Shown here: piece by piece, positions 1,440 through 60,841 of the stretch | How the letters are laid out: every line of letters begins with the position of its first letter | Position numbering within the stretch: the first letter of the stretch is position 1 | Assembly (NCBI GenBank): GCA_043805595.1 | Contig: JAZDHV010000003.1 | Coordinates: forward strand, 1 to 60,841 | DNA from: Candidatus Woesearchaeota archaeon | GTDB lineage: Archaea; Nanobdellota; Nanobdellia; Woesearchaeales; JAGVYU01 | Reading direction: 5' to 3' | Length of the DNA stretch: 60,841 bases | Position numbers and translations under genes: made by a program | Notes under the pieces: model-generated | Told to the model about the DNA's origin: nothing | Database searches by the model: none | The model's input: only the letters and a program-made list of their open reading frames with translations

Positions 1440-1500
1440 TAAAAATAATTTGATGTGTAGAGTATAAATGGAAGGTTAGTCTCCAAAGATTCCTATCTCA

Positions 1501-1601
1501 AATAACAAAAACCGAACTATTCCCCTGCCTGAAGGCAGGGGTATTTATCGTTCGGTTTTTGGGATTGAAAATTCCGACAAGAGAGTCGGAATTTTCAATA
1601 A
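1501..1601. repeat. Double-hairpin repeat family R2, copy 1
   Basis: CCCCTGCC-TGAA-GGCAGGGG and TTGAAAATTCCGAC-n6-GTCGGAATTTTCAA hairpins; second copy at 12802-12902. Confidence 0.85.
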
Positions 1602-1630
1602 TATTTGATTTAAAACAAATATTTGAATGC

Positions 1631-1692
1631 ATTGTTTGAATTGATTGTTTGAATTGATTGTTTGAATTGATTGTTTGAATTGATTGTTTGAA
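1631..1692. repeat. Tandem repeat, 13-bp unit ATTGTTTGAATTG x~4.8, just upstream of the A1 start
   Basis: Directly visible in the sequence. Confidence 0.9.
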
Positions 1693-1711
1693 ATGAATTG
1701 TGGGGTTTTTT

Positions 1712-4015: not shown

Positions 4016-4074
4016 TATTATGGAATCATAATAAAAGATTTAAAATGAAAATCATAAAAGATATATGATTTAAA

Positions 4075-4231
4075 ATGTCAGAATTTTCCATCCAGTCTCT
4101 GACTGGTGGCAAGCTTTGCCTGCTTTTAACTTCAAAAGCTGGAAAATTCTGAGCACTAAGAACCACCAGTCCTATCATAATGTAGTGTGGATTTAGTGAA
4201 TCCCACCAGTCTATGACTGGTGGTTCTTTAG
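4075..4231. repeat. R1 mosaic repeat, copy 2 (short, two modules)
   Basis: Matches modules of 1-400. Confidence 0.9.
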
Positions 4232-4278
4232 ATATGGGAATGAAATAAGAAATGGAGATTAAGTAAATCAATAAAATT

Positions 4279-7765: not shown

Positions 7766-8526
7766 TTAAGAAGATGAAACAAATAAAAATTTTGAAAGAA
7801 TCATTGAACAGTATCGATTCAAAAGCTCTTCTAGCTGCAGGTTTTGACTTAGTCCTTGTCCTGTTTCTATTTATCAGCCTAAGTATGTGGATAGGCTCAT
7901 TGTCTTCGCAGATAATGTCTGTGACAAACCTTCCTCTTGACCAGTTGTATAATGCAGAACTTTCTGAGTTAGAGTCGATGTATAGTGTTGTTTACAATTT
8001 CTTGTTTTCATTGATCATTGGATTGCTCTTGACATTTGTTATATTCATCTTATTGTATACTATTTTCAAAGGCCTGACTTGGTCATGGATTTATGCAAAG
8101 AAATTTTCTCTGAAAAAATTCTTCAATCTATTCCTAATAATTCTTGTCTGGTTCACCTTAATACTGTTCCTCATCATTAGTCTTTTCTTCAGATTTCAGG
8201 TATTTATCAATGCAAATGTCAATCTTTCAAGAATATTGATGATTGCATTAATTTTTTTTGTCATGTATTTCACAAACCTGTTATTCTTCTATTTTCTCAA
8301 AGATCAATCATTGAGATTTATCTTGAAGAACACTTTTTTCTTTTCATTCAGAAAAATGCATAATATCCTTCCTTATTTCCTGATATTTTATATCATCTTG
8401 TTGATATTGATTTTCTCTTTGTTCTTAAACACTTACTGGTTTTTTATTGGTTCAATGATTACCTTGATTTATCTTGCAGTATCAAGGATATTCTTCAGCA
8501 GATTGTTAGAAAAAAACTTTAGCTAG
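7762..8526 (+). CDS. Cassette protein D1: polytopic membrane protein
   Basis: About 6-7 hydrophobic helices; LYTIFKGLTWS matches D2 LYTLFKGLIWS; ATGA overlap with the C1 stop. Confidence 0.8.
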   Translation: MIKKMKQIKILKESLNSIDSKALLAAGFDLVLVLFLFISLSMWIGSLSSQIMSVTNLPLDQLYNAELSELESMYSVVYNFLFSLIIGLLLTFVIFILLYTIFKGLTWSWIYAKKFSLKKFFNLFLIILVWFTLILFLIISLFFRFQVFINANVNLSRILMIALIFFVMYFTNLLFFYFLKDQSLRFILKNTFFFSFRKMHNILPYFLIFYIILLILIFSLFLNTYWFFIGSMITLIYLAVSRIFFSRLLEKNFS

Positions 8527-43846: not shown

Positions 43847-44258
43847 ATGTTGACACATGCAATGAGATGGATTATTGAGGAATACCACAAATGTCTTAAA
43901 ACAGGCTGTAGGTTTGAGCAAAGACAACTAAAGAATAATAGAAGAATTGAAAGATTAATGGGTTTTCTTGCTGTGGTTGCTCTTCGTCTTTTGCAATTGA
44001 GAGAGCAAATGAAAAATGGTCAGTATATTGCCAGAAGCTATGTTCCTGACCTTGCCCTTGAAGTACTAGCTAAGAAGATTTCTCTAGACCCCGAGTCAAT
44101 TACATTAAGACAGTTTTGGATTGAAGTGGCAAAAATAGGGGGGTTTCTAGCCAGAAAAAGTGACGGGGATCCTGGCTGGATTACGATTTGGAGAGGTTGG
44201 AATGATTTACAAAAGATGTGTGAAGGTGCAAGTATAATGAGTTGTGGGTAACGATGAG
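43847..44258 (+). pseudogene. IS4-family (IS50/Tn5-like) transposase C-terminal remnant with right-end sequence
   Basis: RWIIEEYHKCLKTGC..E.RQL and IGGFLARKSDGDPGWITIWRGW motifs; N-terminal DDE part missing; TGTGGGTAACGATGAG end. Confidence 0.85.
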
Positions 44259-45372: not shown

Positions 45373-45482
45373 TTATACTCAGAAATGGCAATACTCCAAC
45401 CTTAAGGTTGGAGATGTAGCCATTTCTGATCGACCTACTCCCATAGATACCCCTACCTTTAGGTGGGGGAGTAGGTCATTTT
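45373..45482. mobile_element. 110-bp double-hairpin element R3 (IS200/IS605-end-like MITE), copy 1
   Basis: CTCCAACC-TTAA-GGTTGGAG and CCCCTACC-TTTA-GGTGGGGG hairpins; 109/110 identical to 60171-60280. Confidence 0.7.
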
Positions 45483-46931: not shown

Positions 46932-46984
46932 GATTGAAGCATATATCCAGAAGTATATAAGTATTTTGCAACTCATTTATTCAT

Positions 46985-47137
46985 ATGTCAGAAATATGCC
47001 ACTGGCCTGCATGACCAGTGGACAATACTGTCAACAATCTATTTTTGGAAGGTAGCATATTTCTGAGCATGCTCAAATCCGGCAGGGTAAGCGAAGCGGA
47101 CATGCCTATCGACTGGTGGTCCCTGCCGGCTTTGACA
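46985..47137 (+). repeat. R4 repeat copy
   Basis: Similar to 47791-47948. Confidence 0.9.
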
Positions 47138-47736: not shown

Positions 47737-47790
47737 TATATTATTATCACAGATTTATAAACTTTCCTGTTAAATCTCTAGAAGTTTTAT

Positions 47791-47948
47791 ATGTCAGAAA
47801 TATGCCACTGGCCTGCATGACCAGTGGATAATAGTCCACAATCCATTTTTGGAAGGTGGCATATTTCTGAGCATGCTCAAATTCGGCAGGGTGAGGGAAG
47901 CGAACATGCTACCATTCTATTGACTGGTGGTCCCTGCCGACTTTGACA
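47791..47948 (+). repeat. R4 repeat copy
   Basis: Similar to 46985-47137 and to the reverse complement of 30848-31005. Confidence 0.9.
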
Positions 47949-48117
47949 GACTATTCATTTTTTGCCTTTTTCAATTTTTTCTAACAATGTCATATGCCCT
48001 TTGCAGGATGAGAGATCTCTAAACGGCTGTGTCCTAATCTATGAATGTTAATTTTGTATCTATATAGTGGTTACAAAACAAAAGATTTAAATAGAGTGTT
48101 ATAATTTTAATGCACAT

Positions 48118-49053
48118 ATGGCAACCAGCAAACCAATTGACTTACAAACTATGACTATTAATGGAGTCAAGGCAATGTCTCCGAAAGATATTGCTGATAC
48201 ATTTGGTGTAGATTTTGTAGGAGTATATACGAACCCAACACTTCTAGAATGGAGGGCAGGAACTACTTATCATATTTTCGGTACCAGTTCTGCACTTGGA
48301 GAACAGAGTCACCAAGAGTATATGCAGAAGGGAAATTTTATTATCTGGGGAACTACCAGGGGAGATCATTGGCATATTCTTTTACCATGTATTGATGGAA
48401 AATTTATCCCTCCAGGAAGTCTTACTGTTGAGCAGTATAAACCATTTTTATCGCGTCAAGGTCATGCAGGGGTGGAACGGATTGTTGCAGAGTATAACAC
48501 TCAATCTAGATTAACCGATATGCTAAAACAAATTATTCCTGTCACATTAGTAGGTCAAAATATTGATTTTAATGTTTTAAGCGCACCTGCCGACCCAGCA
48601 TATCCGAAAGGAAAAGAAGTCAGATTCTTAGATGATTATATCAGGGAACTGAATCGGGTTTATTCTTTGCTTGATATACTTGGAAAAAAAACTAATCGAA
48701 TTGCCAATGGAAAAGATGTACTCCATTATGTAATAGGCTCACCACTTAAAAATGTTGAAGGAGAAGATATCTTGAGATATATGCTAATGCAAAGTGCACA
48801 GGCTGGACAATGGCAACCGTTCATCATTGATGTTCCGCATTTAACGGATACAAAAAAAAGAACCGCATCAGAATATTTGAAAAGTGTCAAGCAAATTGAT
48901 ACTTCGAATACTGGTACTATGGTAGAAGCAAATCTTTCATTTGGTGTAGCCAAGGCAATGCGAGGTAATCTTGGTTTACCAATAGAATATGATAATAAAT
49001 TAGTTGTTGTTCCATCTCAGACATTTGTTGAGTATATTGCCCAAAGGAGATAA
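48118..49053 (+). CDS. Hypothetical protein
   Basis: 311-aa ORF with TTTAAATA box; codon usage appears different from the cassette genes. Confidence 0.75.
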   Translation: MATSKPIDLQTMTINGVKAMSPKDIADTFGVDFVGVYTNPTLLEWRAGTTYHIFGTSSALGEQSHQEYMQKGNFIIWGTTRGDHWHILLPCIDGKFIPPGSLTVEQYKPFLSRQGHAGVERIVAEYNTQSRLTDMLKQIIPVTLVGQNIDFNVLSAPADPAYPKGKEVRFLDDYIRELNRVYSLLDILGKKTNRIANGKDVLHYVIGSPLKNVEGEDILRYMLMQSAQAGQWQPFIIDVPHLTDTKKRTASEYLKSVKQIDTSNTGTMVEANLSFGVAKAMRGNLGLPIEYDNKLVVVPSQTFVEYIAQRR

Positions 49054-49095
49054 GTTAGCCAAAGCCCCTTTCTAGTTTTCTAGGACTCCAAATTT

Positions 49096-49215
49096 ATTGA
49101 AGATAATCATGTTATATTCTTTTTCAGTTACGCAAGTCCTGAAAAATTGATTACAAAGTGATCAAAGTTTTTTACACCAAGTGAAAAATTGAACATAACA
49201 GGAATTATGCTCAAT
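49096..49215. other. Pair of inverted dif/Xer-like sites forming a ~120-bp imperfect palindrome
   Basis: ATTGAAGATAA-TCATG-TTATATTCTTT (49096-49122) and ATTGAACATAA-CAGGAA-TTATGCTCAAT (49188-49215). Confidence 0.55.
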
Positions 49216-49392
49216 TTTTTGGGGTAAAATAGTGGAAGGGGCAAGAAGTCATAAAACGAAAGGTTTTGAGAGTGGAGTGGACACTCTGCAAAGGTTGAGT
49301 GATGTATTGATGATATTATTAATAATTATGTTAAATATATAATATGTCACTTTCTAAACTTCTAATAACTGAAGATGAGCAATAGTGCATGA

Positions 49393-49411
49393 CCACTGGA
49401 CATTCTGCTGT
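49393..49411 (+). promoter_or_regulatory. 19-bp motif CCACTGGACATTCTGCTGT, copy 1, just upstream of a TATA box
   Basis: Four identical copies, each followed by a TATA-like element. Confidence 0.7.
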
Positions 49412-49446
49412 AAACTTTATAAATGACCTCTTTTCCCAATTTTATT

Positions 49447-49860
49447 ATGGTTAAGCAGGCCAAACTCCTGAATTATGTTGAGCCAAGAATAAGCTATAAT
49501 TCAGGAGAAATATGTGGATTAGCTAAATGGAGGAAATTAGTTGTTGAAAGAGACAAAGGAAAGTGCCAGAACTGCTTCAATTCAGTCAAAGACTGGCTGA
49601 GAAAAAGAAATTTCTCTAATGAAGCCCATCATATAATCCCCAGGCATTTTGGAGGAAGAAACACTTTGAATAATGGAATCACTCTCTGCAAATTCTGCCA
49701 TCATTACTATGACTTGATGGCATTAAGGTTTGGTTATGACTATTTTGAGATTATCAAAAGCATGGATGCAGGAGAAAGGATCAATCAGGTAAGGCAATTG
49801 ATGAAAAAGCGGTTTTTGAGGTTTTTGTCTGGTTTGTTTACAAACCCAAAACAGTATTAA
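49447..49860 (+). CDS. HNH endonuclease
   Basis: RDKGKCQNC, AHHIIP, GGRNTLNNGITLCKFCH. Confidence 0.9.
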   Translation: MVKQAKLLNYVEPRISYNSGEICGLAKWRKLVVERDKGKCQNCFNSVKDWLRKRNFSNEAHHIIPRHFGGRNTLNNGITLCKFCHHYYDLMALRFGYDYFEIIKSMDAGERINQVRQLMKKRFLRFLSGLFTNPKQY

Positions 49861-49932
49861 TTTATAATAAACACATATTTTCTTATTCAAAAATAGAAGC
49901 ATTTAAAAACTAACTCTCCACTTCTATATATA

Positions 49933-50064
49933 ATGGCAGACTATAAGCTAGTTAAGTATTGCAGGGCTTGCAAGGACAGGTTTGTTGTTGACAAGAGTGA
50001 ATTAAAACAAAATTACTGCAGTGCGTGCCAGAATAAATTAGATGATGGACGTAAAAGTCCATAA
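49933..50064 (+). CDS. 43-aa zinc-finger microprotein, not in the ORF track
   Basis: MADYKLVKYCRACKDRF...NYCSACQ: two CxxC pairs; TTTAAA box upstream. Confidence 0.6.
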   Translation: MADYKLVKYCRACKDRFVVDKSELKQNYCSACQNKLDDGRKSP

Positions 50065-50134
50065 ATTAGAGAATATGAGTAAAAATATGAGCTGGGAAAT
50101 CTAGGTTTTCAGGCTTTTTTTTGGGAGGAATAAA

Positions 50135-50326
50135 ATGAAAGGAACAGTAAAATTCTTCAATGAGATGAAGGGATTTGGATTCATCGCTGGAGAAGATGGG
50201 AAAGAATACTTTGTACATCAGACAGGAATTAAGGATGGTGTAACCTTGAACGAGAGCGATAGTGTTACATTTGATGTAGAGCAGGGTGACAGAGGCCCAA
50301 AAGCAGTTAATGTGAATAAGAAGTAA
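50135..50326 (+). CDS. csp: Cold-shock domain protein
   Basis: MKGTVKFFNEMKGFGFI, FVHQT, GPKAVNV; GGAGG RBS. Confidence 0.95.
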   Translation: MKGTVKFFNEMKGFGFIAGEDGKEYFVHQTGIKDGVTLNESDSVTFDVEQGDRGPKAVNVNKK

Positions 50327-50443
50327 TTAAGTTTTTAAAATTATTAGTTTCATAATTTTTATGACTTTTTTATGCTTAAAAACAGCTTCTTTTTTTTATT
50401 TTTTTTAAATTTCTTAATCCTGCATTAGTTTTTATTCTTTCTC

Positions 50444-50674
50444 TTACATCCCTAAATATTTCATTAATTCAAATATAAGAAATCCAGGCCACAATAAAGC
50501 TTTGATAATTCCCCAAGCACCATCCCAAAATCCTGTTGCTGTAGATACATAATAAACTAAAGCTCCTACCATTCCTAAGAAATATATTCCTCCCCCTCCT
50601 TTGCACATATTGCCCATATCTTTGCATGCATTTTTCTTTTTCATTCCCATTTTTTCAATTTTCTTCTTTTCCAT
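50444..50674 (-). CDS. Small membrane protein
   Basis: GGIYFLGMVGALVYY...GIIKALLWP; GAGGTG RBS. Confidence 0.75.
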   Translation of the reverse strand: MEKKKIEKMGMKKKNACKDMGNMCKGGGGIYFLGMVGALVYYVSTATGFWDGAWGIIKALLWPGFLIFELMKYLGM

Positions 50675-50754
50675 ATTATTGCACCTCTAATTATCATTGT
50701 TGTCAAAGATTAAGATTAATTGGTTTCATATATAAAGTTTGCTGATATTACTGG

Positions 50755-50773
50755 CCACTGGACATTCTGCTGT
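50755..50773 (+). promoter_or_regulatory. 19-bp motif, copy 2
   Basis: Identical to 49393-49411; followed by GAGATATACAAA. Confidence 0.7.
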
Positions 50774-50889
50774 GAGATATACAAATGAGTTCTGGTTTCC
50801 TTTCTTTATTTTTCATAATCTTTAAGATTTTGAATAATCTTTTTTAAAATAGTAAACTTTATAATATATCAATTTATAATGAAATAATC

Positions 50890-51846
50890 ATGATTGATAT
50901 TTACTATTTTGATAAAAAGATAAAGAAAGGGAAATTAAGTGATTTAAGAAAGCTAAAAAACAAGAAGAAATGGCTGGATATCACAAGCCTCTCAAAAGAA
51001 GAGAAGAAATTAATTCAAGAAGAATTTGGACTGCATCCTTTGACTTCTGAAGACCTGTTTGACTCAGGGATCAGGATTAAAGTGGAAGAATTCCCTGAAT
51101 ATCTCTTCTCTGTATTTTATGGAGTCAGAAAGAATAAGACAATTGAACTGAATGAGATGGATTTTTTATTGGGCAATAATGTGCTGATAACAAATCATAA
51201 AGGCCAGATAGAATCCTTTCAGACATTAAAGAATAATGAGAAGAGGTTGTTGATTTTATTCAAAAAAGGGCTTGATTTCCTATTTCACAGATTGCTTGAT
51301 CTAGAGATTGACAACTTCTTTCCAGTGCTGGAGAATATTGATGATGAGATTGAAGATTTGGAAGATGAAGTCACAAAAAAACCAAGGCCAGAGCTTATGT
51401 CTAAAATATTGAAATTAAAGAGAAGGGTCATATCAATAAAGAAGATCACTCTCCCTCAAAGGGAAAAGATATCTTTTTTAGCCAAAAATGAGTATAGGTT
51501 TATCTCAAAAAAGTCAATCCCTTATTTTAGGGATGTTTATGATCATGCAATAAGGGTGTCTGATACAGTTGATAATTATAGGGAGGCAATAAGCGGAATT
51601 TATAATGCATATATGTCTGCAATATCAAATAATATGAATGATGTGATGAAAACATTAAGCATTATGGCTACAATTGCATTGCCTTTGGGAATCATCTCAG
51701 GAATATTTGGGACGAATTTTGACAACCTGCCAGGCCAGCACATGCATTATGGTTTTTGGATTATGATTTTGTTGATGTTGGCATTTGTTGGAGGCATGAT
51801 GTTGTTCTTTAACAGTAAAGGCTGGATTTATTGGAAAAAAAGATAG
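50890..51846 (+). CDS. corA: CorA-family Mg2+/Co2+ transporter
   Basis: FGLHPLTSED, YFRDVYDH, MNDVMKTL, GIFGTNF (GxN motif), two C-terminal TMs. Confidence 0.93.
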   Translation: MIDIYYFDKKIKKGKLSDLRKLKNKKKWLDITSLSKEEKKLIQEEFGLHPLTSEDLFDSGIRIKVEEFPEYLFSVFYGVRKNKTIELNEMDFLLGNNVLITNHKGQIESFQTLKNNEKRLLILFKKGLDFLFHRLLDLEIDNFFPVLENIDDEIEDLEDEVTKKPRPELMSKILKLKRRVISIKKITLPQREKISFLAKNEYRFISKKSIPYFRDVYDHAIRVSDTVDNYREAISGIYNAYMSAISNNMNDVMKTLSIMATIALPLGIISGIFGTNFDNLPGQHMHYGFWIMILLMLAFVGGMMLFFNSKGWIYWKKR

Positions 51847-52288
51847 TCTGAGAATTTCTAATAAATCCAAAGAAATAATTAATTCTTGCATGTGATATGT
51901 GCTAGCATCTTGGTAATGCATTCAAAAACTGCGTCTGCAGAGTTCATGAGCCTGATGAAATGAGAATTTAATATTTAGGCAATGACTATTTTCTCAAAGG
52001 CTTTTCTTCCTTATGCTTGTCATGGATGTGATGCTCTAAAGATTTTACAGGCTTATGGCAATAAGGACAATGACCTTCTGTTGTTGGTTCAATATACTTT
52101 ACTGGATTGTGCAATCCTCTCTTAGATTTTACCATATGTCTAATCTAATGATGTTAATATTTAAATTTATCTAAACCAATGCTTAGTATAACATTCCCTG
52201 TCAGGATTGAATTTTAGCTTTAGTTCCCAAGGGCTTTGTTTTTCATTATTGAATAAGATTTATAAATAAATGAATTTTTGTGGACAAT

Positions 52289-52435
52289 ATGGAGAAAAGA
52301 CTTAAGAAGAGCAAGCTCATTACCCAAAAAGAGCATGATGAGTGGCATAGAAAGAATAAGGAATATAACAATAAGATTGATAAGGAGCGCGAGCTTTGCC
52401 ACAAAAAGATAGGATTGACAGTCAAGAAAGGTTAG
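52289..52435 (+). CDS. 48-aa basic His-containing microprotein, not in the ORF track
   Basis: MEKRLKKSKLITQKEHDEWHRKN...ELCHKKIGL; TTTATAAA box upstream. Confidence 0.5.
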   Translation: MEKRLKKSKLITQKEHDEWHRKNKEYNNKIDKERELCHKKIGLTVKKG

Positions 52436-52568
52436 AAAGCTCAAATAGCTGAATGCTATAAGACTCTGATTATGGACTAATTTCTTTATATTTTTAAGTT
52501 TTATTCAATGAAATCAGCAGAAGAAAAACACTATAAAACCAACTGTTTTATTCTTATTTGTGTTGAAA

Positions 52569-52587
52569 CCACTGGACATTCTGCTGT
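52569..52587 (+). promoter_or_regulatory. 19-bp motif, copy 3
   Basis: Identical; followed by GAGATATATAAA. Confidence 0.7.
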
Positions 52588-52739
52588 GAGATATATAAAT
52601 GAGTTATCTCTTAAATATTTAAGTAGTAGAAACAGGATTAATTAATCAGGAAAGACCCCTCAACAAGCTCTTTCTAGAATTGGTTGATCCTGCTACTATT
52701 TAAACTTTTGGAAACTGAATATCAGAACATTTCAATAAT

Positions 52740-53246
52740 GTGGAATCTAAAATGGACCAGATTAAGCTTCAATTGGGCAGAGCCATGCCAATAAATGGAA
52801 CGAGAAAAGAGATTAGAAGGATTTTCCTTGACTTATGCACTTCTCTGCATCAGAATGGAATAAAAAGAATACTTTTTATTGATACTATCAATTTTCTTGA
52901 TCCTCACAAGATGGATCTTGGTGATTTGAATGAGATCAACTTCTATGACAACATATTCTGTGTCAGGACAGGACTGCCATATGACCTTTATGCAAGGCTG
53001 AGTACAGCAGAATCTTTCATAAGATATCACAGGATTCAGGCTTTATTAGTATCATCAATATCATCTGTCTTTTCTGGGTTTGAAAAAGAGGAAACACATC
53101 AGATTGTAAAAAACATTTTAGAGAAAATCAATCATCTCACTGAAAGATGCAATCTCTACACAATCATCGGCAACACAACCTCTGAAGAAGAAGAGGTGAT
53201 GGATGCTTATGCTGTTGTGGATAGGATAATGTCTAATCAATCTTAA
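52740..53246 (+). CDS. Short, likely inactive RadA/RecA-fold protein
   Basis: ILFIDTINFLDP...NIFCVRTGLPYDL...ALLVSSISSVF pattern; no Walker A. Confidence 0.65.
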   Translation: MESKMDQIKLQLGRAMPINGTRKEIRRIFLDLCTSLHQNGIKRILFIDTINFLDPHKMDLGDLNEINFYDNIFCVRTGLPYDLYARLSTAESFIRYHRIQALLVSSISSVFSGFEKEETHQIVKNILEKINHLTERCNLYTIIGNTTSEEEEVMDAYAVVDRIMSNQS

Positions 53247-53323
53247 CCAAATTACAGAAAAATTTGATTTTAATAGTCAAAATGAAAAGATTTATATAAT
53301 TGTAGATATGCACAAATATACAA

Positions 53324-53587
53324 ATGAATAATTTAGATGAAAAATCAAGATTATACAAGGCTTTGGGAGAACCTATAAGATTAAGGATTATTGAGTACCT
53401 TATGAAAAAGGGACAATGCGCTTGTATTTGTGAATTGAGTAAATTTCTAAAAAGGGATCAATCCGTAATTTTTAGGCATATACAGATATTAAATCAGGCT
53501 GGCATTATCAATACAAATAAAGAAGCCAAATATTTGATGTGTTGTATCAAAGATAAAAAAAAGATTAAGAAATTGTTGGAGGATTAA
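53324..53587 (+). CDS. ArsR/SmtB family transcriptional regulator
   Basis: KALGEPIRLRII, CICEL, QSVIFRHIQILNQAGII. Confidence 0.92.
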   Translation: MNNLDEKSRLYKALGEPIRLRIIEYLMKKGQCACICELSKFLKRDQSVIFRHIQILNQAGIINTNKEAKYLMCCIKDKKKIKKLLED

Positions 53588-53588
53588 G

Positions 53589-53711
53589 ATGGCAGAAAAG
53601 AAAAAGGGATTTTTTAGTAGATTAATAGCTAAACTTGATACTAAACTTGAAAAGAAATCTAAAAATAAAAAGAGCTGTTGTTGTCAGGATTCTAAAGATA
53701 AGAAATGCTAG
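53589..53711 (+). CDS. 40-aa Cys-rich microprotein between ArsR and the permease
   Basis: MAEKKKGFFSRLIAKLD...SCCCQDSKDKKC; GGAGG RBS. Confidence 0.6.
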   Translation: MAEKKKGFFSRLIAKLDTKLEKKSKNKKSCCCQDSKDKKC

Positions 53712-54665
53712 AAGAAATTTTAAATTGGATATTGTACTCAATTATAGGACTAAACCCAACAATAAAATGGGTTGAAACACTTAATTTTTTTTTTATATGA
53801 TTCTATCAAGATCATATTGATTCTGTATGTGATGATATCTATTATTGGATTCCTAAGAACATATTTACCTCAAAATAAGATAAAAAGATGGATAAGCGGC
53901 AAAAAGTATGGTACAAGTAATCTTATTGCGTCTTTTTTTGGAGCAATAACACCTTTTTGTTCATGTTCTTCAATTCCAGTCTTTCTGGGTTTTTTAGAAG
54001 CAGGAATACCCCTTGGTGTTACATTCTCATTTTTAATCACTTCCCCTTTAGTAAATGAATATTTGGTAGTATTAATGTTTGGATTTTTTGGCTGGAAAAT
54101 AACTTTAGCTTATGTAATAAGTGGAATATTGATAGGTACAATATCTGGGCTGATTCTTGGAAAAATGAATCTAGAAAAATATTTAGTGAAAGACCTTATA
54201 TCTACTGATAATACTAAGAAAGAAATAAGATTTAAAGGGTTTAAAAAGAGATTGGATTTTGGGCTAAATGAATCATTATCTATAACACGAAAATTATGGT
54301 TATGGATATTGGTAGGTGTTGGGGTTGGAGCAGTTATTCATAATTACGTGCCATCAGAAGTGATTCAATCAATAATAAGCAAGGGAGGCATATTTGCAGT
54401 TCCAATTGCAGTAATTTTTGGAGTGCCCTTGTATGGGAGTTGTGCAGCAATTGTTCCTATTGCATTAGTATTATTTGAGAAAGGAGTGCCTATAGGTACT
54501 GCATTAGCTTTTATGATGGCTATATCTGGACTAAGTTTTCCAGAAGCAGTCATCTTAAGAAGGGCGATGAAGCTTAAATTAATCATAATATTCTTTTTAG
54601 TTGTTACAATGGCAATAATCCTGACTGGTTATATCTACAATTTTTTGCAAATTTTACTTATTTAA
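53705..54665 (+). pseudogene. ArsP/DUF318-type permease, frameshifted in a T10 run (53785-53794)
   Basis: GAITPFCSCSSIP, FLITSPLVN, SGLSFPE motifs; upstream frame MLEEILNW...ETLN joins FFLYD if the run is T9. Confidence 0.8.
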
Positions 54666-54682
54666 GTAAAATATTTCTTTAA

Positions 54683-54701
54683 CCACTGGACATTCTGCTG
54701 T
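54683..54701 (+). promoter_or_regulatory. 19-bp motif, copy 4
   Basis: Identical; followed by GAGATATTTAAA. Confidence 0.7.
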
Positions 54702-54757
54702 GAGATATTTAAATAGACTCAGATTCACTCATAATTGTCAAAACATATGGGGTGAAA

Positions 54758-55066
54758 ATGGGACACACAATAACATCAATGCGCTGGGTCATCTATGATG
54801 AGATCCAGAAGCTGAAAAAGCTCTCTGATTCTTTGAGAGAGCCAGAGCATAGCATTGCAAAATCTTTGTTATATCACATCTACAGCAATATTTCTGCAGT
54901 GACCCATGCTAATCCTTTTCCAAAGGATCTGCTGAACAACATGATCTACACAATCCTGATTGAGGAAAAAAAGAAAAAAGGCATTGATGCTGATGATCTT
55001 GCTCTTTTGCTGTTCTCGATTATTGTTCAGTATAAGGCTGGGAAGGTTGATCTGAAAAATTCTTAA
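54758..55066 (+). CDS. Small helical protein resembling the PolB2-operon-associated family (arCOG07300-like)
   Basis: MGHTITSMR...E...L...LREPE N-terminus resembles the MGRTVPSxR family; GGGGTG RBS. Confidence 0.6.
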   Translation: MGHTITSMRWVIYDEIQKLKKLSDSLREPEHSIAKSLLYHIYSNISAVTHANPFPKDLLNNMIYTILIEEKKKKGIDADDLALLLFSIIVQYKAGKVDLKNS

Positions 55067-55079
55067 TGGCCAGAGCCTT

Positions 55080-55107
55080 ATTGAACTTAATTGGCATTAT
55101 GTTCTTT
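55080..55107. other. dif/Xer-like site
   Basis: ATTGAACTTAA-TTGGCA-TTATGTTCTTT. Confidence 0.5.
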
Positions 55108-55245
55108 TTCCCTCCAAGCCGACCCACTGAACAAAGTGACTATATATAGAATCAAGAGATGAAATAATTCGAGCATAAGGCGAGAGAGTTGCGTAGGGGC
55201 AAAATTTCTATCGAGAACTAAGTTCAATCAAGTTAAAAGAATAAA

Positions 55246-55542
55246 ATGCCAGAATTGTATAAAATGTCAGAATTGTATAAAATCTTTCAGATTTTTAACA
55301 CCCTAAAATGTCAGGAATTTTCCACCAGTTTTTAACTGGTGGCTGAAAGCCATTCCCAATATTGGAATCAGAAAAATGCTCAAAATGTCAGAATTTTCCA
55401 TCCAGTCTATGGCTAGTGGCAAGCTTTGCCTGCTTTTAACTTCAAAAGCTGGAAAATTCTGAGCACTAAGAACCACCAGTCTTATTATAAGGTAGTTGCA
55501 GATTTAGTGAATCCCACCAGCCTATGACTGGTGGTTCTTTAG
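55246..55542. repeat. R1 mosaic repeat, copy 6
   Basis: Matches modules of 1-400 in a different order. Confidence 0.9.
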
Positions 55543-55554
55543 GGTAAGAATTTT

Positions 55555-55866
55555 TTATCTAAAATCTTTTAATAGGGCTGCTAATTCATCAAAAACTCTT
55601 TTCTTTTTATCTGCAGACAAAGAGAACATCACTTTTTCAATCATAGCTCTAGAAACTGTAAAAATGTAATTTAGTTTTATAACACTGTCTTTTACAGCCC
55701 CTTCTTTTTTGGCCAAAGGTATACCTTTCATTTCTAAGTTACTTGTTATTCCAGCTACAACAACATTATCAAACTCTTCAAATAATACTAAAGCAGGCCT
55801 TTTTTTAATTTCAAAAGTATCTGTAAACTGGACTTGGGTTAAAACAACATCTCCAGATTTAAGCAT
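55555..55866 (-). CDS. PemK/MazF-family toxin
   Basis: GDVVL...FTD...KKRPALVL...VAGITS...KDSVIKLNYIFTV. Confidence 0.9.
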   Translation of the reverse strand: MLKSGDVVLTQVQFTDTFEIKKRPALVLFEEFDNVVVAGITSNLEMKGIPLAKKEGAVKDSVIKLNYIFTVSRAMIEKVMFSLSADKKKRVFDELAALLKDFR

Positions 55867-56083
55867 TTTGCCATGCCTCATCTTCTTTGCTGCCCCATAA
55901 CTCTTTCATTTTAGCCTGTTGAATTTTATGCAGGAATTCATCATACTGATTCCGTTTCTTTACACTTTTGAATACACTCACCATTTGTTTAATCAAGTCA
56001 TTATAAGTCTGCCTAGGGTATTCTTTTACTTCTTTTAGCGAATTAACCAGTGTCTTTTCAATTTGAATTGTTGTTGTACTCAT
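55859..56083 (-). CDS. Antitoxin (RHH-like) upstream of the PemK/MazF toxin
   Basis: MSTTTIQIEK...YPRQTYNDLI...ELWGSKEDEAW; overlaps the toxin start. Confidence 0.8.
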   Translation of the reverse strand: MSTTTIQIEKTLVNSLKEVKEYPRQTYNDLIKQMVSVFKSVKKRNQYDEFLHKIQQAKMKELWGSKEDEAWQNA

Positions 56084-56178
56084 TATATACCACCTATAGT
56101 TGGTATATAATAGGTTATATATAAATTTTTTGTTTCTGAAAAATTCCTGCATTGTCTTCTAATCTTGCCATCGTAGCG

Positions 56179-56206
56179 ATTGAGTTTAATTCCTGTTATG
56201 CATTCC
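56179..56206. other. dif/Xer-like site followed by a hairpin
   Basis: ATTGAGTTTAA-TTCCTG-TTATGCATTCC; the spacer is the reverse complement of the 49188 spacer. Confidence 0.5.
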
Positions 56207-56331
56207 AACCTACGAAGTGTGGTTGGATTTTGACTGAATAGTTTGGGTTGGCTCGTGTTATAAGTATGTGCTGGTACTTTTCTAAGAATATTTATATACT
56301 AATCATCTATATCTATAAAAAAGATGATATT

Positions 56332-56946
56332 ATGAAAATGACCTTAATTTTAGTAATTCTCCTCATTTTTCTTGGAGGATGCTCAACAGTGCAAGAATCA
56401 CCATCAGCATTAGTAACAAACACAACCAATAAAATATCCGGAACCCAAGAGCTGGTGCTTGATGGGCAGGAGTTAGCACAACTTGGAATGACAAGCGTTA
56501 TTAATGAATCAGATCGTCAGCTATTCGAGATAAGCAATGGAACTGATTGCCGAACAGATGAGGAATACACCAATATTGTAGATTCGTCATTAGGTCAATA
56601 TAGCATTTGTGTCTATAGCATTCCCAGCTTATACAATACCCAGATAATCATTGAATTCCAAAAATTTGCAGATTACGAAGCCCTAAATGGCTCATACCTA
56701 TATGATACCTCTCACTTGTACAGTAAGGAAGGACTTATAAGTGAGAATGATTATGGGGATCAGAGCAGATTCCGTGTAAATAATGAGCATGATTATGGTG
56801 GTCAGTACAATCAACCAGATATCTACTTCTATCACCTATGGTTCACCAAAGATGAATACCTGATTCACATCACTTCTAAAGGGGCTAAGGAAGCTGATGG
56901 GTATATTGAAAATACAGGGCGGCGGATCCTGTCAAAATTTGGGTAA
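56332..56946 (+). CDS. Lipoprotein of unknown function
   Basis: MKMTLILVILLIFLGGC lipobox. Confidence 0.75.
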   Translation: MKMTLILVILLIFLGGCSTVQESPSALVTNTTNKISGTQELVLDGQELAQLGMTSVINESDRQLFEISNGTDCRTDEEYTNIVDSSLGQYSICVYSIPSLYNTQIIIEFQKFADYEALNGSYLYDTSHLYSKEGLISENDYGDQSRFRVNNEHDYGGQYNQPDIYFYHLWFTKDEYLIHITSKGAKEADGYIENTGRRILSKFG

Positions 56947-56982
56947 ATTTCTATCTTATTTATATCAATAGTGAGCCAACTC

Positions 56983-57010
56983 AAAAAGCATAATTGCTGT
57001 TACCTTCTTT
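56983..57010. other. dif/Xer-like site followed by a hairpin
   Basis: AAAAAGCATAA-TTGCTG-TTACCTTCTTT, then TTTTCCCATAC-GCA-GTGTGGGAAAA. Confidence 0.4.
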
Positions 57011-57228
57011 TCCCATACGCAGTGTGGGAAAATTTTGACCGAAAAGTAATTTTGAGTTCTATAAATTTCGACCGTAGGGAGACTATCTTTTAGGGGTCTG
57101 TTCAGTTCAATCCAGTTCGAAGAGCTTTCAAGAACAAGTTATCAAGGGGCACGCTCAAACCAATAAATCAAGAATCGTGGCCTAAACCGAAAGGTTTATA
57201 TATCATTTATGGATAATATTATCCAAAT

Positions 57229-57801
57229 ATGGATAACAAACATAAAATAATTAATTATCTTGGAAAAAATCAGAATAGGGGGTATACTATGCATGAATTA
57301 AGCAATGAATTGAATATCCCTTATGCTAGTTTTTATAGAACTATTGAATCTATGAAGGACCTATTAATCATTGAAGAGGTCGGAAAATCTAAGGTGCTCT
57401 CGCTTAATAAATATAATCCAATCGTAAAATCGCATTTAATAGTATCTTCTGATGAAGAAAGAAAAGAATATATTCAAAGATATCCAATTATTAAGAAAAT
57501 CTATCAGGAACTTAATACAAAAGATATTGTAGTCTTATTTGGAAGTTATGCTAAAAAAACACAAACAGACAGAAGCGATATCGATCTGATAATAATAAAT
57601 AAAGATGGCAAAAAAAGCATATCATTTTCAAAATATGAAACTTTGTTTAGAATAAAGATAAATCCAATATTTGTAACAAAAAAAGAATTTAAGTTGATGC
57701 TTAAAGATAAAGAAGAAAATGTTGGAAAGCAAGCTTTATATATTCATATAATATTAAATAATCCGGAAGCTTTTTGGGAGTGTGTCTTTAATGGAGTTTG
57801 A
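57229..57801 (+). CDS. HTH + MNT antitoxin
   Basis: LFGSYAKKTQTDRSDIDLII. Confidence 0.88.
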   Translation: MDNKHKIINYLGKNQNRGYTMHELSNELNIPYASFYRTIESMKDLLIIEEVGKSKVLSLNKYNPIVKSHLIVSSDEERKEYIQRYPIIKKIYQELNTKDIVVLFGSYAKKTQTDRSDIDLIIINKDGKKSISFSKYETLFRIKINPIFVTKKEFKLMLKDKEENVGKQALYIHIILNNPEAFWECVFNGV

Positions 57802-58316
57802 CAAAGAAGAATATAAAACAACATTTGACGAATTTGTTAAAAAGAAGAGGATTAAGAAATCGTCTCAATCTTTTAAGATAAAGCTGTTTAACAAAAGCAG
57901 AAAACAGTTTACTTATTGCCAAGCATAATAAGGAGATTGAGCCAACAAAAGACCAACCAAAAAAGCTTTTTTGGGATTATTGGGCTATTACAATATCTTA
58001 TTACTCTATGCTTTATGCAACAAAAGCAGCTATTTTGTCTAAAGGATATGAAGTTTCAGATCATGATGCTGCTCAAATAGCCTTAGGACATTTATTAGTT
58101 CCTGATGAGATTGAAAAAGAGGATTTAGAAATACTAAATCAAGCTCATAAAATCTTTGAAGATGAATATGTGCATTATTTTGAGGATGCAAAAACAGAAA
58201 GCCATATAGCAAGATATTCTGCAATAAAGACATATACTAAAAGAAGATTAGATGAAATATTCAATAATGCGACTGATTTTATAGCTAAGATTGGATTTAT
58301 TTTACAAGAAGAATAG
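57791..58316 (+). pseudogene. HEPN domain protein, frameshifted near 57885-57897
   Basis: MEFDKEEY...KIKLF(N) continues in another frame as KAENSLLIA...WAITISYYSMLYATKA...SDHDA. Confidence 0.75.
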
Positions 58317-58534
58317 AATTTTTATTGTAGTTATATTTTTTACAAGTTATAGGTAACAAGATAATTAGGGATATTGAATTGATAATTGAATTAGCTTAGA
58401 AATCCGAAAGTGCAGCGTCCCCTTGAGTTTTTGAAAATGCCGTTCGAGTGCGAAGCACAATAAAGAAAAAATATATGGGGGCAAACTTTCTTAACATAGA
58501 AAATATTTTATACTGGATTGAATTATTAGATGCT

Positions 58535-59983
58535 ATGGACAGACAAAAGGAATGTGTTAAATTTAAAAATGATAATAAGGTATATCGGTTAATTGCAGGA
58601 TATGATTATAGTGATGCAGTAGAATTAGTTATCCATACAGGGATCTCCAGCAATACTTTTGGGTTCTCCGGCCATACTTTTCGTCGTGATCATCGCTATC
58701 CTTTTAGAAGTGCTTCCATTAATGAAAGTGGTGTTGTCACACAAATAGAATCTAAAAAAGGTTTATTCAGACTGGATACAACATCTGGACTAACTCAGGT
58801 TGTAACAGATATGCCATCAAATGAAAGAATCCTATTAATAAAAAATGTATATGATACTATGGCTGCTATCTCTGCTGGGTGGAGAAAAGCAAAAATAGAA
58901 AGAATAAATCTTGATCCTTATATTCCTCGATCAGCAATGATGCCTGGTGTTAATGATTTATTATATCAAGCAAATAGATTTGGATTCTCAAATTATATAT
59001 ACAGGGAAGAAAGCGAGGGTTGGTCAAAATTTAAACCTCCGACAAGCCATCCAACATGGTTTATATATAATCCTGTTGTTGAAGGTTGTGCTAAGGCAGT
59101 AACCAATCCTTGTGTTTTTTGTACTTTATATGATGGTGTAGGATTCAGAGTAGTTCCTCTAAAGGAATTTAAGCAAAATGAACAAAGATTAAAAAAATAT
59201 GCTGAGCATTTTATCAGAGGACATTTCACATGGCATAAATATAGAAGCCTTGAGGAATTCTTAAATAATAATCCAATTGAAGAGTCACATCATATAATTA
59301 GAGGATACTATAGCATGTTTTGGGGAGATGGTAATATATTATTTTTAGACCATAGTGACTTAATAAAACGTCTCAATATCCATAGAAAAACATTCACTGT
59401 AGATGGTCTTCCAGTCGAACCAAATCCTAAGGCCAAGAATCCAATAACAGTTTCTGCTAATACTATGTACGATTATACAGCAGAAACAGATATTTCAGCC
59501 ACACTTTCTCCAGTAACAGCTTTTGCCCATTTGAGTAGTGTACTTAGGCATGCAAATCATCTAAAAAAATACCTTCAAAGAGGTTTAACAGATCTGTGGG
59601 TTGGTGTTGAGAGCGGAGATCCTGTAACTCTAAAACAGATGAATAAATCAATATCACCAGCAATGCAAAAAGAAGCACTTAGTGCATTGCAAGAATCAGG
59701 AATTGCTATCCGTGCTACTGTTTTCTCTACTGCAATTGATGAGCAGAGGGCAGAAGAACATATTCAACGTACAGTAGATGCTGTTAGCGGACTTACACAA
59801 GGAGCTAATTGTGTTTACTTGTCAGATATTGTTGTACACCCTGGGACTGAGCTTCATGAGATGGTTCAAGCTGGAGATGTTAGAATTCCAAGCGGACAAA
59901 GAGTGAAAACTCTTAAACAAATACTTAAAGATGAACTTAGCAGAAGGAGTGTAATGACTTGGGATTATCCAATGGTTACCTAA
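58535..59983 (+). CDS. Radical SAM protein with N-terminal extension
   Basis: GCAKAVTNPCVFCTLY (CX7CX2C), FWGDGN, VGVESGDPVTLKQMNK, PGTEL; start codon uncertain. Confidence 0.8.
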   Translation: MDRQKECVKFKNDNKVYRLIAGYDYSDAVELVIHTGISSNTFGFSGHTFRRDHRYPFRSASINESGVVTQIESKKGLFRLDTTSGLTQVVTDMPSNERILLIKNVYDTMAAISAGWRKAKIERINLDPYIPRSAMMPGVNDLLYQANRFGFSNYIYREESEGWSKFKPPTSHPTWFIYNPVVEGCAKAVTNPCVFCTLYDGVGFRVVPLKEFKQNEQRLKKYAEHFIRGHFTWHKYRSLEEFLNNNPIEESHHIIRGYYSMFWGDGNILFLDHSDLIKRLNIHRKTFTVDGLPVEPNPKAKNPITVSANTMYDYTAETDISATLSPVTAFAHLSSVLRHANHLKKYLQRGLTDLWVGVESGDPVTLKQMNKSISPAMQKEALSALQESGIAIRATVFSTAIDEQRAEEHIQRTVDAVSGLTQGANCVYLSDIVVHPGTELHEMVQAGDVRIPSGQRVKTLKQILKDELSRRSVMTWDYPMVT

Positions 59984-60170
59984 CCAGATTAAGAATCTTA
60001 TTATAATTCCTAGTAATTTCTTTGAGTCTGCCCCTTTCCACTAAAACTAGGCATTTTCAAAAATTTTGTCTAATCGCTGATGTTAGCCGAACCGACCCCT
60101 ACGAAGTGGGGGGAGGGAAGTATGACGGAGGGAGTTCGCAACATCAAGAAAAAGAAGAAAGAATTATTTT

Positions 60171-60280
60171 TTATACTCAGAAATGGCAATACTCCAACCT
60201 TAAGGTTGGAGATGTAGCCATTTCTGGTCGACCTACTCCCATAGATACCCCTACCTTTAGGTGGGGGAGTAGGTCATTTT
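60171..60280. mobile_element. R3 110-bp element, copy 2
   Basis: Direct repeat of 45373-45482. Confidence 0.7.
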
Positions 60281-60578
60281 TAATTATTAATATTAGTAAA
60301 AGTACTACATAAGATAACCCTAAAGCAGATAATATGAATGGAAATAAGTAAATGGATGGTCCTGCTATAAAAATTCCTATAGCGAGTCCTAGACAGAATC
60401 CAAACATAGTTTGTCTTGTTCCATCAACAACAGAGACTCCTGCTGAACCATAAGTACAAGGAAATATTGGTAAAGGAATTAATTGTAGGATAACCAGTAT
60501 CAGAATAAAACCAAGAATCCTTTTTGGTGTTATCTTGAATATCTTTTTCCAATCCATAATAGTTCTATGAATATCCAT
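60177..60578 (-). CDS. Small membrane protein whose 3' end reads through into the R3 element
   Basis: MDWKKIFKITPKRIL N-terminus and three hydrophobic helices; the last ~33 codons derive from the repeat. Confidence 0.6.
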   Translation of the reverse strand: MDIHRTIMDWKKIFKITPKRILGFILILVILQLIPLPIFPCTYGSAGVSVVDGTRQTMFGFCLGLAIGIFIAGPSIYLFPFILSALGLSYVVLLLILIIKNDLLPHLKVGVSMGVGRPEMATSPTLRLEYCHF

Positions 60579-60616
60579 TATATATAATTCTTTCTATCAA
60601 GCGAACTCCGAGTAAT

Positions 60617-60729
60617 ATTTTGGCTAATCATGTTATATTCTTTTTCTAATACTTTAGTGTTGGAAAAATCCACGCTTCAGTGTGGAAGTTTGTCAAAGGC
60701 AAATTGAATATAATCATGTTATACACCCT
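60617..60729. other. Second pair of dif/Xer-like sites enclosing hairpins
   Basis: ATTTTGGCTAA-TCATG-TTATATTCTTT and ATTGAATATAA-TCATG-TTATACACCCT; shares TAATCATGTTATATTCTTTTTC with 49104. Confidence 0.5.
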
Positions 60730-60841
60730 CTGTTAAGAGGCAAAAATCATTAATTTGGAGTTTAAGCTGTTGCATAAACGGAAATATTAAGATTTTTGAG
60801 TTTTTCCGAAAGGAAAAATTGTGTATAATCAATGTTAAATG

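Follow-up and report, generated by a model that had tools for sequence, protein, structure and literature searches.

The window analysed here, 60,841 nucleotides (nt) long, is the entire contig JAZDHV010000003.1 (C3) of a Candidatus Woesearchaeota archaeon assembly (GCA_043805595.1, here G000; 1.64 Mb, 66 contigs, 36% G+C, 92% complete). Its right end, positions 55,080-60,841, is probably the proximal-to-middle part of a mobile cassette array, that is, a capture locus resembling integrons or the integrative mobile elements exploiting Xer (IMEX) and driven by an Xer paralogue. The dif-like sites between the cassettes are real and non-random; they are clustered, co-oriented, and recur as arrays in other genomes, with a recombinase gene downstream in the same orientation. 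One boundary between conserved and variable DNA falls inside the core of the recombinase-proximal site, and assemblies break just 5' of the recombinase genes. The most likely role of the recombinase, which is of the type encoded on contig C59 of the same genome, is to integrate and remove cassettes through site-specific recombination at the cores; insertion would take place at the proximal site, and the substrate would be either duplex DNA or a folded single strand.

The dif-like sites and their hairpins

Eight dif-like sites of 11-(5/6)-8 geometry, named A1 to A8 (Table 1), are present where an earlier note, made from the letters of the window, had placed them, including the degenerate A5 and A6 and also A8, which is cut by the contig end; an extra degenerate site lies at 60063. 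The C3 end, at A8, is the only contig end of G000 with such a site. The strict motif ATTGARNWTAA-N5/6-TTATRYW had six matches in the window, one each at 49096, 55080, 56179, and 60703 and two at 49188, which is palindromic and so counts on both strands; 100 dinucleotide shuffles averaged 0.00 matches. Genome-wide there were seven matches, six of them in these 12 kb and one at C35:3228, and the sites thus stand above the AT-rich background and cluster, as had been predicted. Over 41 genomes (G000 and 40 relatives), the strict pattern matched 19 times in 10 genomes (seven in G000, four in G029, and one in each of eight others); a reversed control pattern matched four times in the same genomes.

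The cores are made up of a left arm ATTGARNWTAA, a 5-6 nt centre nearly always ending in TG, and a right arm TTAWRYTC; among the window sites, only A2 has two full 11-nt arms. Two arms around a 5-6 nt centre are the substrate type of Xer and IntI recombinases, with cleavage at the spacer borders (Serre 2013, PMC3646895; Badel 2021, PMC8371274), and our comparison of the cores with published dif sites is one of geometry, not of sequence. After each core comes a hairpin whose shape is conserved, as is its loop (TACGAAGTG type), often with additional small hairpins behind it. A covariance model of site plus hairpin (R1), built from five copies (A4, A5, and one each from G029, G010, and G001, the sister genome in the same genus), gave 19 matches in G000 at E ≤ 10. 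Eight of these are in the window, starting at 56980, 56176, 49167 (minus), 49093, 60614, 60060, 60700, and 55077, with seven of the eight on the plus strand; those elsewhere include C16:28019, C40:51193 and 50615, and C35:4230 and 3225. The C35 pair encloses two small open reading frames (ORFs), and the C40 pair encloses a single ORF of 151 amino acids (aa).

Across 69 aligned R1 hits, ATTG, TAA, the centre T-Y-N-N-T-G, and TTA are invariant. The stem-loop that the note had described as TAC-n-GTGT is real and covaries: in an alignment fitted to the R1 model, which itself favours pairing, 89.9% of the hairpin cells pair versus 66.5% in shuffles, a value reached by none of 500 shuffles. Double-sided changes numbered 144 versus 38 in shuffles, and slid controls paired at no more than 63%. 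All sites are intergenic and, as had been supposed, separate accessory genes: a PemK/MazF toxin and antitoxin, a lipoprotein-like ORF, a block with NTP_transf_2, weak HEPN, and weak Radical_SAM matches, and a membrane ORF. One of the two inverted pairs originally described, 49096/49188, is indeed inverted, R1 placing 49167-49218 on the minus strand; the other, 60617/60703, proved to be direct repeats.

Arrays across the order

R1 matched 60 of the 151 genomes of the order at E ≤ 0.01, a tally that counts G000 and one unpublished genome, G134. In a phylum-wide sample, 40 of 151 genomes matched at E ≤ 0.001, 34 of them from the same order and six from other orders of the class. All 69 R1 hits (E ≤ 0.5) in 20 fetched loci were co-oriented within their own locus. 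The arrays hold up to nine sites in 5.3 kb (G072:C114) or seven in 9 kb (G099), with five each in G023:C14 and G001:C47; sites are spaced 0.1-3 kb apart, typically 0.5-3 kb, and numerous arrays reach a contig end. G099 is a single 1.13-Mb contig, and the array is chromosomal there. Array cargo includes ParE-, HigB-, and DUF2683-type pairs, MNT-HepT, PIN-MazE, NUDIX, and 5'-nucleotidase genes, as well as S51, S66, and M48 peptidases, MFS, LemA, and a response regulator; cassette genes occur on either strand but favour the site direction.

At L061 (G010:C5), positions 391-645 comprise three tandem 100-bp units, each with a core, a hairpin, and an identical 40-nt flank, situated 1.3 kb upstream of the sole strong Xer-like gene of G010; from their sequence, they look like a tandem duplication of a site module. 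The sister array (L033, G001:C47) carries as a cassette, at 7316-7774, an IS200-type Y1 transposase (PF01797, E 4.9e-24), possibly the autonomous partner of the palindrome-associated transposable elements (PATEs) described below.

The recombinase and the sister genome

G000 encodes three tyrosine recombinases: one of 289 aa on C39, one of 275 aa on C59, and an integrase-like protein of 399 aa on C13. The earlier note had seen no recombinase in the window, and the Xer-like gene on C59 is indeed outside it, being placed beside the array by synteny with G001. Window positions 52521-55059 correspond to G001:C47:628-3160 at 90% identity, and positions 495-4402 of the reverse complement of C59 correspond to G001:C47:11951-16000 at 85-91%, flank identity overall being 85-95%. 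In G001, a single contig, C47, therefore runs from the left flank through an 8.8-kb array to the recombinase gene, and by this synteny the C3 end and C59 are the two sides of one locus in G000.

Between the flanks, the two genomes share only 35 nt, the A5 hairpin (56998-57032 versus G001:C47:10855-10889, 91%), on both sides of which the DNA is unrelated. Toward the recombinase gene, the two sequences align again from within the proximal site, which lies 292 bp upstream of the C59 gene, starting at TAAC|AACATT (ATTGCGTATAAC|AACATTTAAAC in G000 and ATTGAACTTAAC|AACATTTAAAC in G001): left of this junction G000 and G001 are unrelated, and to the right they are conserved for 3.8 kb. A 190-nt stretch, consisting of the ~165-nt structured module left of the proximal site plus the core, is 83% identical in G076, which belongs to a different family, and there too it lies upstream of that genome's own recombinase gene. 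The core shared with G076 runs only a few bases beyond the TAAC junction, and past it both flanks are unrelated.

The array has an Xer-like gene downstream, in the same orientation, in G099, G010:C5, G001:C47, G149:C8, G108:C22, G017:C25, G054:C57, G082:C1, and G100:C1. In G099 the array-adjacent gene is the sole strong Xer-like gene, and G010 likewise has one strong Xer-like gene. The arrays, the same-strand Xer-like gene, and the boundary in the proximal site all favour the note's proposal that XerA or a related tyrosine recombinase shuffles cassettes here; the orientation of the sites, however, is direct, not alternating as in the pdif modules that it named.

The C59 protein retains the catalytic R-K-H-R-H-Y, and its nearest matches among solved structures are P. 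abyssi XerA (4a8e, 131.4 bits, aligned in one stretch) and V. cholerae IntI4 (2a3v, 127.7 bits, in two stretches). In the alignment with IntI4, query residues 7-176 correspond to chain residues 9-181 and query 189-267 to chain 239-318, leaving out ~45 residues; query 176-189 therefore spans IntI4 181-239, and the IntI-specific segment is absent. The protein is also under the cut-offs of TIGR02249 (194 versus 265) and NF011946 (125 versus 435). Relatives of the Xer-like protein, among the matches listed, were titled as Woesearchaeota, Pacearchaeota, and Aenigmatarchaeota metagenome-assembled genomes (MAGs); those from a contig profile search with the recombinase alignment were, again among the matches listed, mostly bacterial Xer/IntI relatives, together with at least about a dozen archaeal loci.

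Two kinds of Xer-like genes

Using the XerA equivalog model NF040815, Xer-like genes were detected in 125 of the 151 genomes of the order, here counting G000 and two unpublished genomes, G134 and G114. Among the 150 matches listed, 36 plus-strand genes were within 1.5 kb of a contig start, versus four on the minus strand (binomial 2e-7; 34 versus four without the two unpublished genomes). A plus-strand gene near a contig start has its 5' side facing the break.

Sixty loci were sampled in score order, with plus-strand genes near contig starts omitted and minus-strand genes taken blind. A quick IQ-TREE tree of the 60 sampled and six known proteins yielded clades I, II, and III and a small clade of three rows. 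Clade I (23 rows; support 92, or 96 without one outlier) contains C39, and clade II (13 rows; support 99) contains all five array-linked genes, including C59; the remaining 27 rows make up clade III. In the blind minus-strand sample, a contig end was found within 1.6 kb upstream of 15/16 clade I, 6/8 clade II, and 2/2 small-clade genes but of only 2/13 clade III genes (Fisher 1.4e-5). A canonical CG(T/C)ATAA-N6-TTAT(A/G)CG palindrome occurs within 300 bp upstream of eight genes, all eight in clade III and none in clades I or II. These palindromes, at L164 (G147), L165 (G020), L150 (G087), L153 (G033), L158 (G137), L162 (G028), L170 (G046), and L172 (G121), are near-perfect 8-6-8 or longer, with arms CG(T/C)ATAA, and lie 22-126 bp upstream of the gene; they are candidates for the true dif of the order in xerA/dif modules. 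We read clade III as the housekeeping XerA with its dif, and clades I and II as paralogues whose upstream region appears variable enough to break assemblies.

A clade III gene coexists with a clade I or II gene in at least nine genomes (G147, G121, G137, G062, G028, G149, G009, G048, and G078). In the G000 assembly (92% complete), we found neither a clade III XerA nor the canonical dif palindrome; both G000 Xer-like genes fall in the break-associated clades, C39 grouping with clade I although it passes the NF040815 cut-off (229.8 bits against 220), which C59 fails (196 bits).

Proximal sites were located by regular expressions and inspection by eye. That of clade I, ATTGnnnnTAAC-AnnTA-TTAAACG with the right half repeated inverted, is fixed at 101-106 bp upstream in six loci, and that of clade II is 270-425 bp upstream of the start. 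Four contigs (L173, L182, L183, and L201) start exactly at the TAAC of the proximal site. In the 12 kb upstream of 20 high-scoring XerA loci, R1 found a site at just two. At 40 lower-scoring recombinase loci, where the upstream stretches were short, R1 gave six weak hits, a near-silence due to the different hairpins that proximal sites bear.

Folding as single-stranded DNA

Folded as single-stranded DNA (ssDNA), the A1-A2 region (49090-49222) gave z -3.94, with 0/200 shuffles as good. A6-A7 forms a three-armed junction in which the A6 spacer and right arm pair with the A7 left arm and spacer (z -4.19, 0/200); A7-A8 also forms a three-armed junction, closed by the right arm and the next left arm (z -5.58, 0/200). 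The C59 proximal site yields a two-armed junction closed by TAACAACATT/AATGTTGTTA (z -5.10), the pairing being kept in G001. Half-cores thus pair around two to three hairpins in all four regions (z -3.9 to -5.6). A4 alone is unexceptional (z -1.58, 13/200 shuffles as good). Most junctions consist of a single duplex-type core and a neighbouring hairpin, and the loops are often C-GNA-G mini-hairpins, which are unusually stable in DNA. The hairpin fold showed no strand preference: eight G-T versus 14 A-C cells give no sign of one strand (or RNA) as the folded form. Junction folding is possible by these computations, and it may or may not matter to recombination.

How cassettes may move, and what weighs against it

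The invariant TG|TTA, the variable centre, and the different proximal centre together suggest a single strand-pair exchange, which would occur at the TG|TTA junction and be followed by replication. Integron cassettes also recombine by exchange of one strand pair, then replication. CTXphi does likewise (PMC3442271). Alternatively, recombination could be chiefly between array sites with a common centre. The hairpin modules might serve as accessory arms like those of cer/psi, or as folded substrates.

Several observations weigh against cassette capture by an Xer paralogue. The assemblies compared showed neither recombination products nor circles nor empty sites. The array centres (TYNNTG) are unlike the proximal centre (CAACAT), and ordinary two-strand exchange would therefore be hindered. 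R1 misses most proximal sites, so the linkage statistics lean partly on contig-break patterns; the tree was a quick one, with an SH-like approximate likelihood ratio test (SH-aLRT) value of only 87% for clade III; and the link between the C3 end and C59 comes from synteny, not from sequence overlap. The note had looked to strain comparison for breakpoints coinciding with the sites, and the outcome was mixed: on the recombinase side, the breakpoint is inside the proximal core, but left homology ends at 55059, 21 bp before A3, where G001 has no site, A3 lying within ~135 bp absent from G001. At the C40 and C35 sites, which G001 also lacks, a search of that genome for empty-site alleles found breakpoints close to the sites but none inside them. 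Finally, G099 has a single Xer-like gene, beside the array and ~167 degrees from orc1/cdc6, so the enzyme there may be a plain housekeeping Xer.

It is possible, though we judge it unlikely, that there is no dedicated integrase, the proximal site being the chromosomal dif at which the housekeeping XerA resolves dimers and IMEX-like elements pile up. The cores do have dif geometry (in A2, that of a perfect 11-6-11 palindrome), a single strong Xer-like gene adjoins the array in G099 (one contig) and in G010, the G099 locus is where a terminus is expected relative to orc1/cdc6, and clade III XerA was not found in the G000 assembly. However, the nine or more genomes with a clade III gene plus a clade I/II gene, the confinement of canonical palindromes to clade III (8/8), and the R1 sites at only 2/20 high-scoring XerA loci all argue against this reading, and the terminus argument is from one genome with the origin assumed to be at orc1.

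We give considerably less credence to the repeats being non-recombining, i.e., intergenic regulatory or terminator palindromes, or miniature-transposon remnants, lying between accessory genes by chance. Other hairpin repeats are abundant here (the PATE at 55240-55545 and a 110-nt repeat at 60165-60280), the T-runs after the right arm could terminate archaeal transcription, and A1/A2 and A3 are absent from the sister genome, as if they were small insertions. However, the site regions have no other copies in the genome at E ≤ 1e-3, except for 28 nt (49081-49108, matching C35:4218-4245 at 96%), and the likeness among sites is confined to the core and hairpin shape, unlike the near-identical PATEs; the Xer-site geometry, the strict co-orientation (69/69), the link to Xer-like genes, and the homology boundary inside a core are likewise against it.

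A classical integron, with IntI and attC sites as in some archaeal MAGs, is very improbable because the recombinase lacks the IntI insertion (~45 residues) and is under both integrase model cut-offs, its gene being co-oriented and downstream rather than divergent and the ORFs being on both strands, despite the small accessory cassettes rich in toxin-antitoxin (TA) pairs, a score against IntI4 near that against XerA, and a G-TTA junction resembling the integron core motif GTTRRRY. In addition, four core strings had no match in the available part of the supplement of Ghaly et al. 2022 (PMC9668308).

Comparison with known systems

Integrons, including archaeal integrons and clusters of attC sites lacking integron integrases (CALINs), share with the locus one recombinase gene by a primary site, TA-rich short cassettes, and structured sites between these (Ghaly et al. 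2022, PMC9668308). In both, close relatives differ in what their arrays contain, the C59 recombinase is equally near IntI4 and XerA outside the insertion, and the proximal site upstream of the C59 gene, with the boundary inside it, corresponds to the primary site that integrons have by their integrase. The locus differs in having no IntI-specific segment (the I2 helix region); moreover, integron attC sites are R''-L''/L'-R' hairpins, imperfect palindromes whose two ends pair as ssDNA to restore the core, whereas here most junctions have a full dif-like core with a hairpin alongside, although A1-A2, A6-A7, A7-A8, and the C59 proximal site do fold with paired half-cores. The integron integrase is divergent, with promoterless, co-oriented cassettes under the cassette promoter Pc, whereas here the recombinase gene is co-oriented and downstream and genes occur in both orientations (MazEF, for one, is on the minus strand), so that they presumably have their own promoters. 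The element is present in 60/151 genomes, versus few Woesearchaeales attC carriers in the available part of Data S1 of Ghaly et al. (PMC9668308).

The IMEX (CTXphi, VGJphi, TLCphi, and the gonococcal island) have no integrase of their own and dif-like flanks, and they stack at one Xer site (PMC5357621). The elements here are likewise flanked by dif-like sites and stacked, and the inverted dif-like ssDNA fold of CTXphi resembles A1/A2 (PMC5357621); single strand-pair exchange, as in IMEX, would tolerate the unlike centres. The present cassettes differ in being archaeal and in having 1-3 genes without replication or phage functions, and, whereas IMEX use the host's housekeeping Xer and integrate at the single chromosomal dif near the terminus, most genomes here have a paralogue by the array besides an XerA with canonical dif; in G099, with its sole Xer-like gene by the array and ~167 degrees from orc1, the host Xer may serve. 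In the pdif modules of Acinetobacter plasmids, site orientation alternates around the module. They are similarly small accessory modules, including TA pairs, bounded by Xer-type sites, but they are plasmid-borne, whereas the sites here are co-oriented and, in G099, chromosomal.

As in xerS/difSL, xerH/difH, and archaeal xerA/dif, the recombinase gene adjoins its own site; those systems have one site per chromosome and, in the part of the source available, no cassette array (PMC5357621). XerA/dif dimer resolution uses one 11-6-11 site per chromosome (Cortez 2010; Badel 2021, PMC8371274). Here there are at least eight sites in 12 kb, and arrays in relatives, rather than a single site. The accessory DNA consists of small hairpins with conserved loops, and we know of no ArgR/PepA-type partners for the hairpin module. 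The cer and psi sites are alike in having an Xer core with one-sided accessory DNA of 100-200 bp that possibly sets directionality (PMC5357621).

More tentatively, DPANN archaea may carry a widespread second kind of integron, with an Xer paralogue lacking the IntI helix, its own proximal site, dif-like cores with two- or three-armed hairpin junctions, dedicated gene capture, and cassette exchange across families, and this might resemble an Xer-to-IntI intermediate. A published description of Xer-linked cassette arrays in archaea was not found in the literature searched, which included passages of Ghaly 2022, Cortez 2010, Castillo 2017, and Badel 2021. Integrons are the textbook prokaryotic route of gene capture and reshuffling. 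Their integrase is thought to derive from Xer by gain of one helix (PMC7790495). If the second kind exists, cassette capture would not need the IntI helix innovation, and the arrays would provide a living model for integron beginnings; they would also explain part of the hypervariable, assembly-breaking DPANN regions, in which rapid turnover of symbiosis-related accessory genes is expected.

Cassettes and neighbouring features

The gene content of the window is archaeal (S-layer-type, archaeal EF-1alpha, MNT/HEPN pairs, and numerous orphan giant ORFs). In 2-kb windows over positions 48000-60841, G+C is 0.31-0.35 at 48-60 kb and less than 0.35 from 50 kb, versus 0.37 for the entire contig. There are no tRNA genes in the window, and an Rfam scan of 47-60.8 kb returned only mir-2763 and HgcC, both sub-threshold and at chance level. 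The lipoprotein-like ORF of cassette 2 has a homologue in G002 (68% identical), and no sites were found beside the MazEF and lipoprotein homologues in that genome. Table 1 lists the cores, hairpins, and cassettes.

Table 1. Sites, hairpins, cassettes, and a high-copy repeat in the window, 49,096-60,841.
Feature	Position	Strand	Sequence or content	Match or remark
Core A1	49096..49119	+	ATTGAAGATAA-TCATG-TTATATTC	R1 49093-49146, 28.9 bits
Three small hairpins A1-A2	49120..49187	+	Loops of type (T)AC-n-AGTG	
Core A2	49188..49215	-	ATTGAGCATAA-TTCCTG-TTATGTTCAAT (minus strand)	Perfect 11-6-11 palindrome, inverted versus A1; R1 49167-49218, 33.1 bits
Core A3	55080..55104	+	ATTGAACTTAA-TTGGCA-TTATGTTC	R1 19.3 bits
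PATE-type high-copy hairpin repeat	55240..55545	.	Inside cassette 1	>100 partial or full genome copies; many in G001
Cassette 1	55555..55881; 55859..56152	-	PemK/MazF toxin; antitoxin	PF02452 E 7.6e-9; DUF7557
Core A4 and hairpin	56179..56227	+	ATTGAGTTTAA-TTCCTG-TTATGCAT; hairpin TCCAACC-TACGAAGTGT-GGTTGGA	R1 58.1 bits
Cassette 2	56248..56946	+	232-aa lipoprotein-like ORF	
Core A5 (left arm degenerate) and hairpin	56983..57032	+	AAAAAGCATAA-TTGCTG-TTACCTTC; TTTTCCCA-TACGCAGTGT-GGGAAAA	R1 56980-57032, 60 bits
Cassette 3	57229..57801; 58008..58316; 58448..59983	+	MNT-type nucleotidyltransferase; weak HEPN; 511-aa weak radical-SAM	NTP_transf_2 (first ORF)
Decayed site and hairpin	60063..60117	+	ATTTTGTCTAA-TCGCTG-ATGTTAGC; CCCC-TACGAAGTG-GGGG	R1 60060-60117, 21.1 bits, E 0.29
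Cassette 4	60177..60578	-	133-aa membrane-like ORF	3' end overlaps 110-nt repeat 60165-60280
Core A6 (left arm degenerate)	60617..60640	+	ATTTTGGCTAA-TCATG-TTATATTC	R1 60614-60667, 21.9 bits
Three hairpins A6-A7	60641..60702	+		
Core A7	60703..60726	+	ATTGAATATAA-TCATG-TTATACAC	R1 20.6 bits
Three hairpins A7-A8	60727..60817	+	Closing stem TTATACAC/GTGTATAA	
Core A8	60818..60841	+	ATTGTGTATAA-TCAATG-TTAAATG	Contig end 7 bases past spacer

The array as drawn in the note also took in 49.3-55.06 kb, but this interval is no variable cassette: the genes there (HNH, zinc ribbon, CSD, CorA, ArsR, and an ArsP permease) are partly conserved in G001, and the stretch is not a cassette array but four units with a common genome-wide promoter motif. 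A1/A2 are a solo inverted pair closing a segment absent from G001, and A3 starts 14 bp past the stop of a conserved 104-aa ORF. The repeat CCACTGGACATTCTGCTGT was considered as a second recombination site and rejected, being a genome-wide promoter-type motif, CACTGGACA plus a TATA box, ahead of ORFs. The 9-mer CACTGGACA occurs 27 times in the genome versus ~6 expected, often doubled and then followed by a TATA box. A promoter-type element, CCACTGGACATTCTGCTGTGAGATATATAAAT, is found at 49393-49429, 50755-50791, 52569-52605, and 54683-54719, 30-170 bp before four plus-strand ORFs (HNH, CorA, 168-aa, and 104-aa), and also at C59:9719-9737 (minus); motifs resembling it stand ahead of Xer-like genes elsewhere (L169, L173, L179, and L180). 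It is probably the operator of some regulator.

The 165-nt and ~300-nt repeats were rejected as part of the site system: they are PATE-type, have dozens of copies, and are unrelated to the sites. A second PATE-type family, at 46980-47137 and 47786-47949, flanks a DUF1003 gene, and the 165-nt family has >25 copies in G001. The hairpin-rich 110-nt repeat at 60165-60280 recurs at 45373-45482 with 99-100% identity and has at least eight other copies (C47, C13, C55, C58, C35, C61, C43, and a second in C3); its Rfam match to HgcC is weak (25.5 bits versus a cut-off of 50), and it could be a miniature element that was recently active, or else a small RNA present in many copies. The place where G001 has ~10.7 kb extra is occupied in the window by a 134-aa fragment (43847-44251) of a DDE transposase of the Tn5/IS4 type, matched through its dimerisation domain (E 4e-6).

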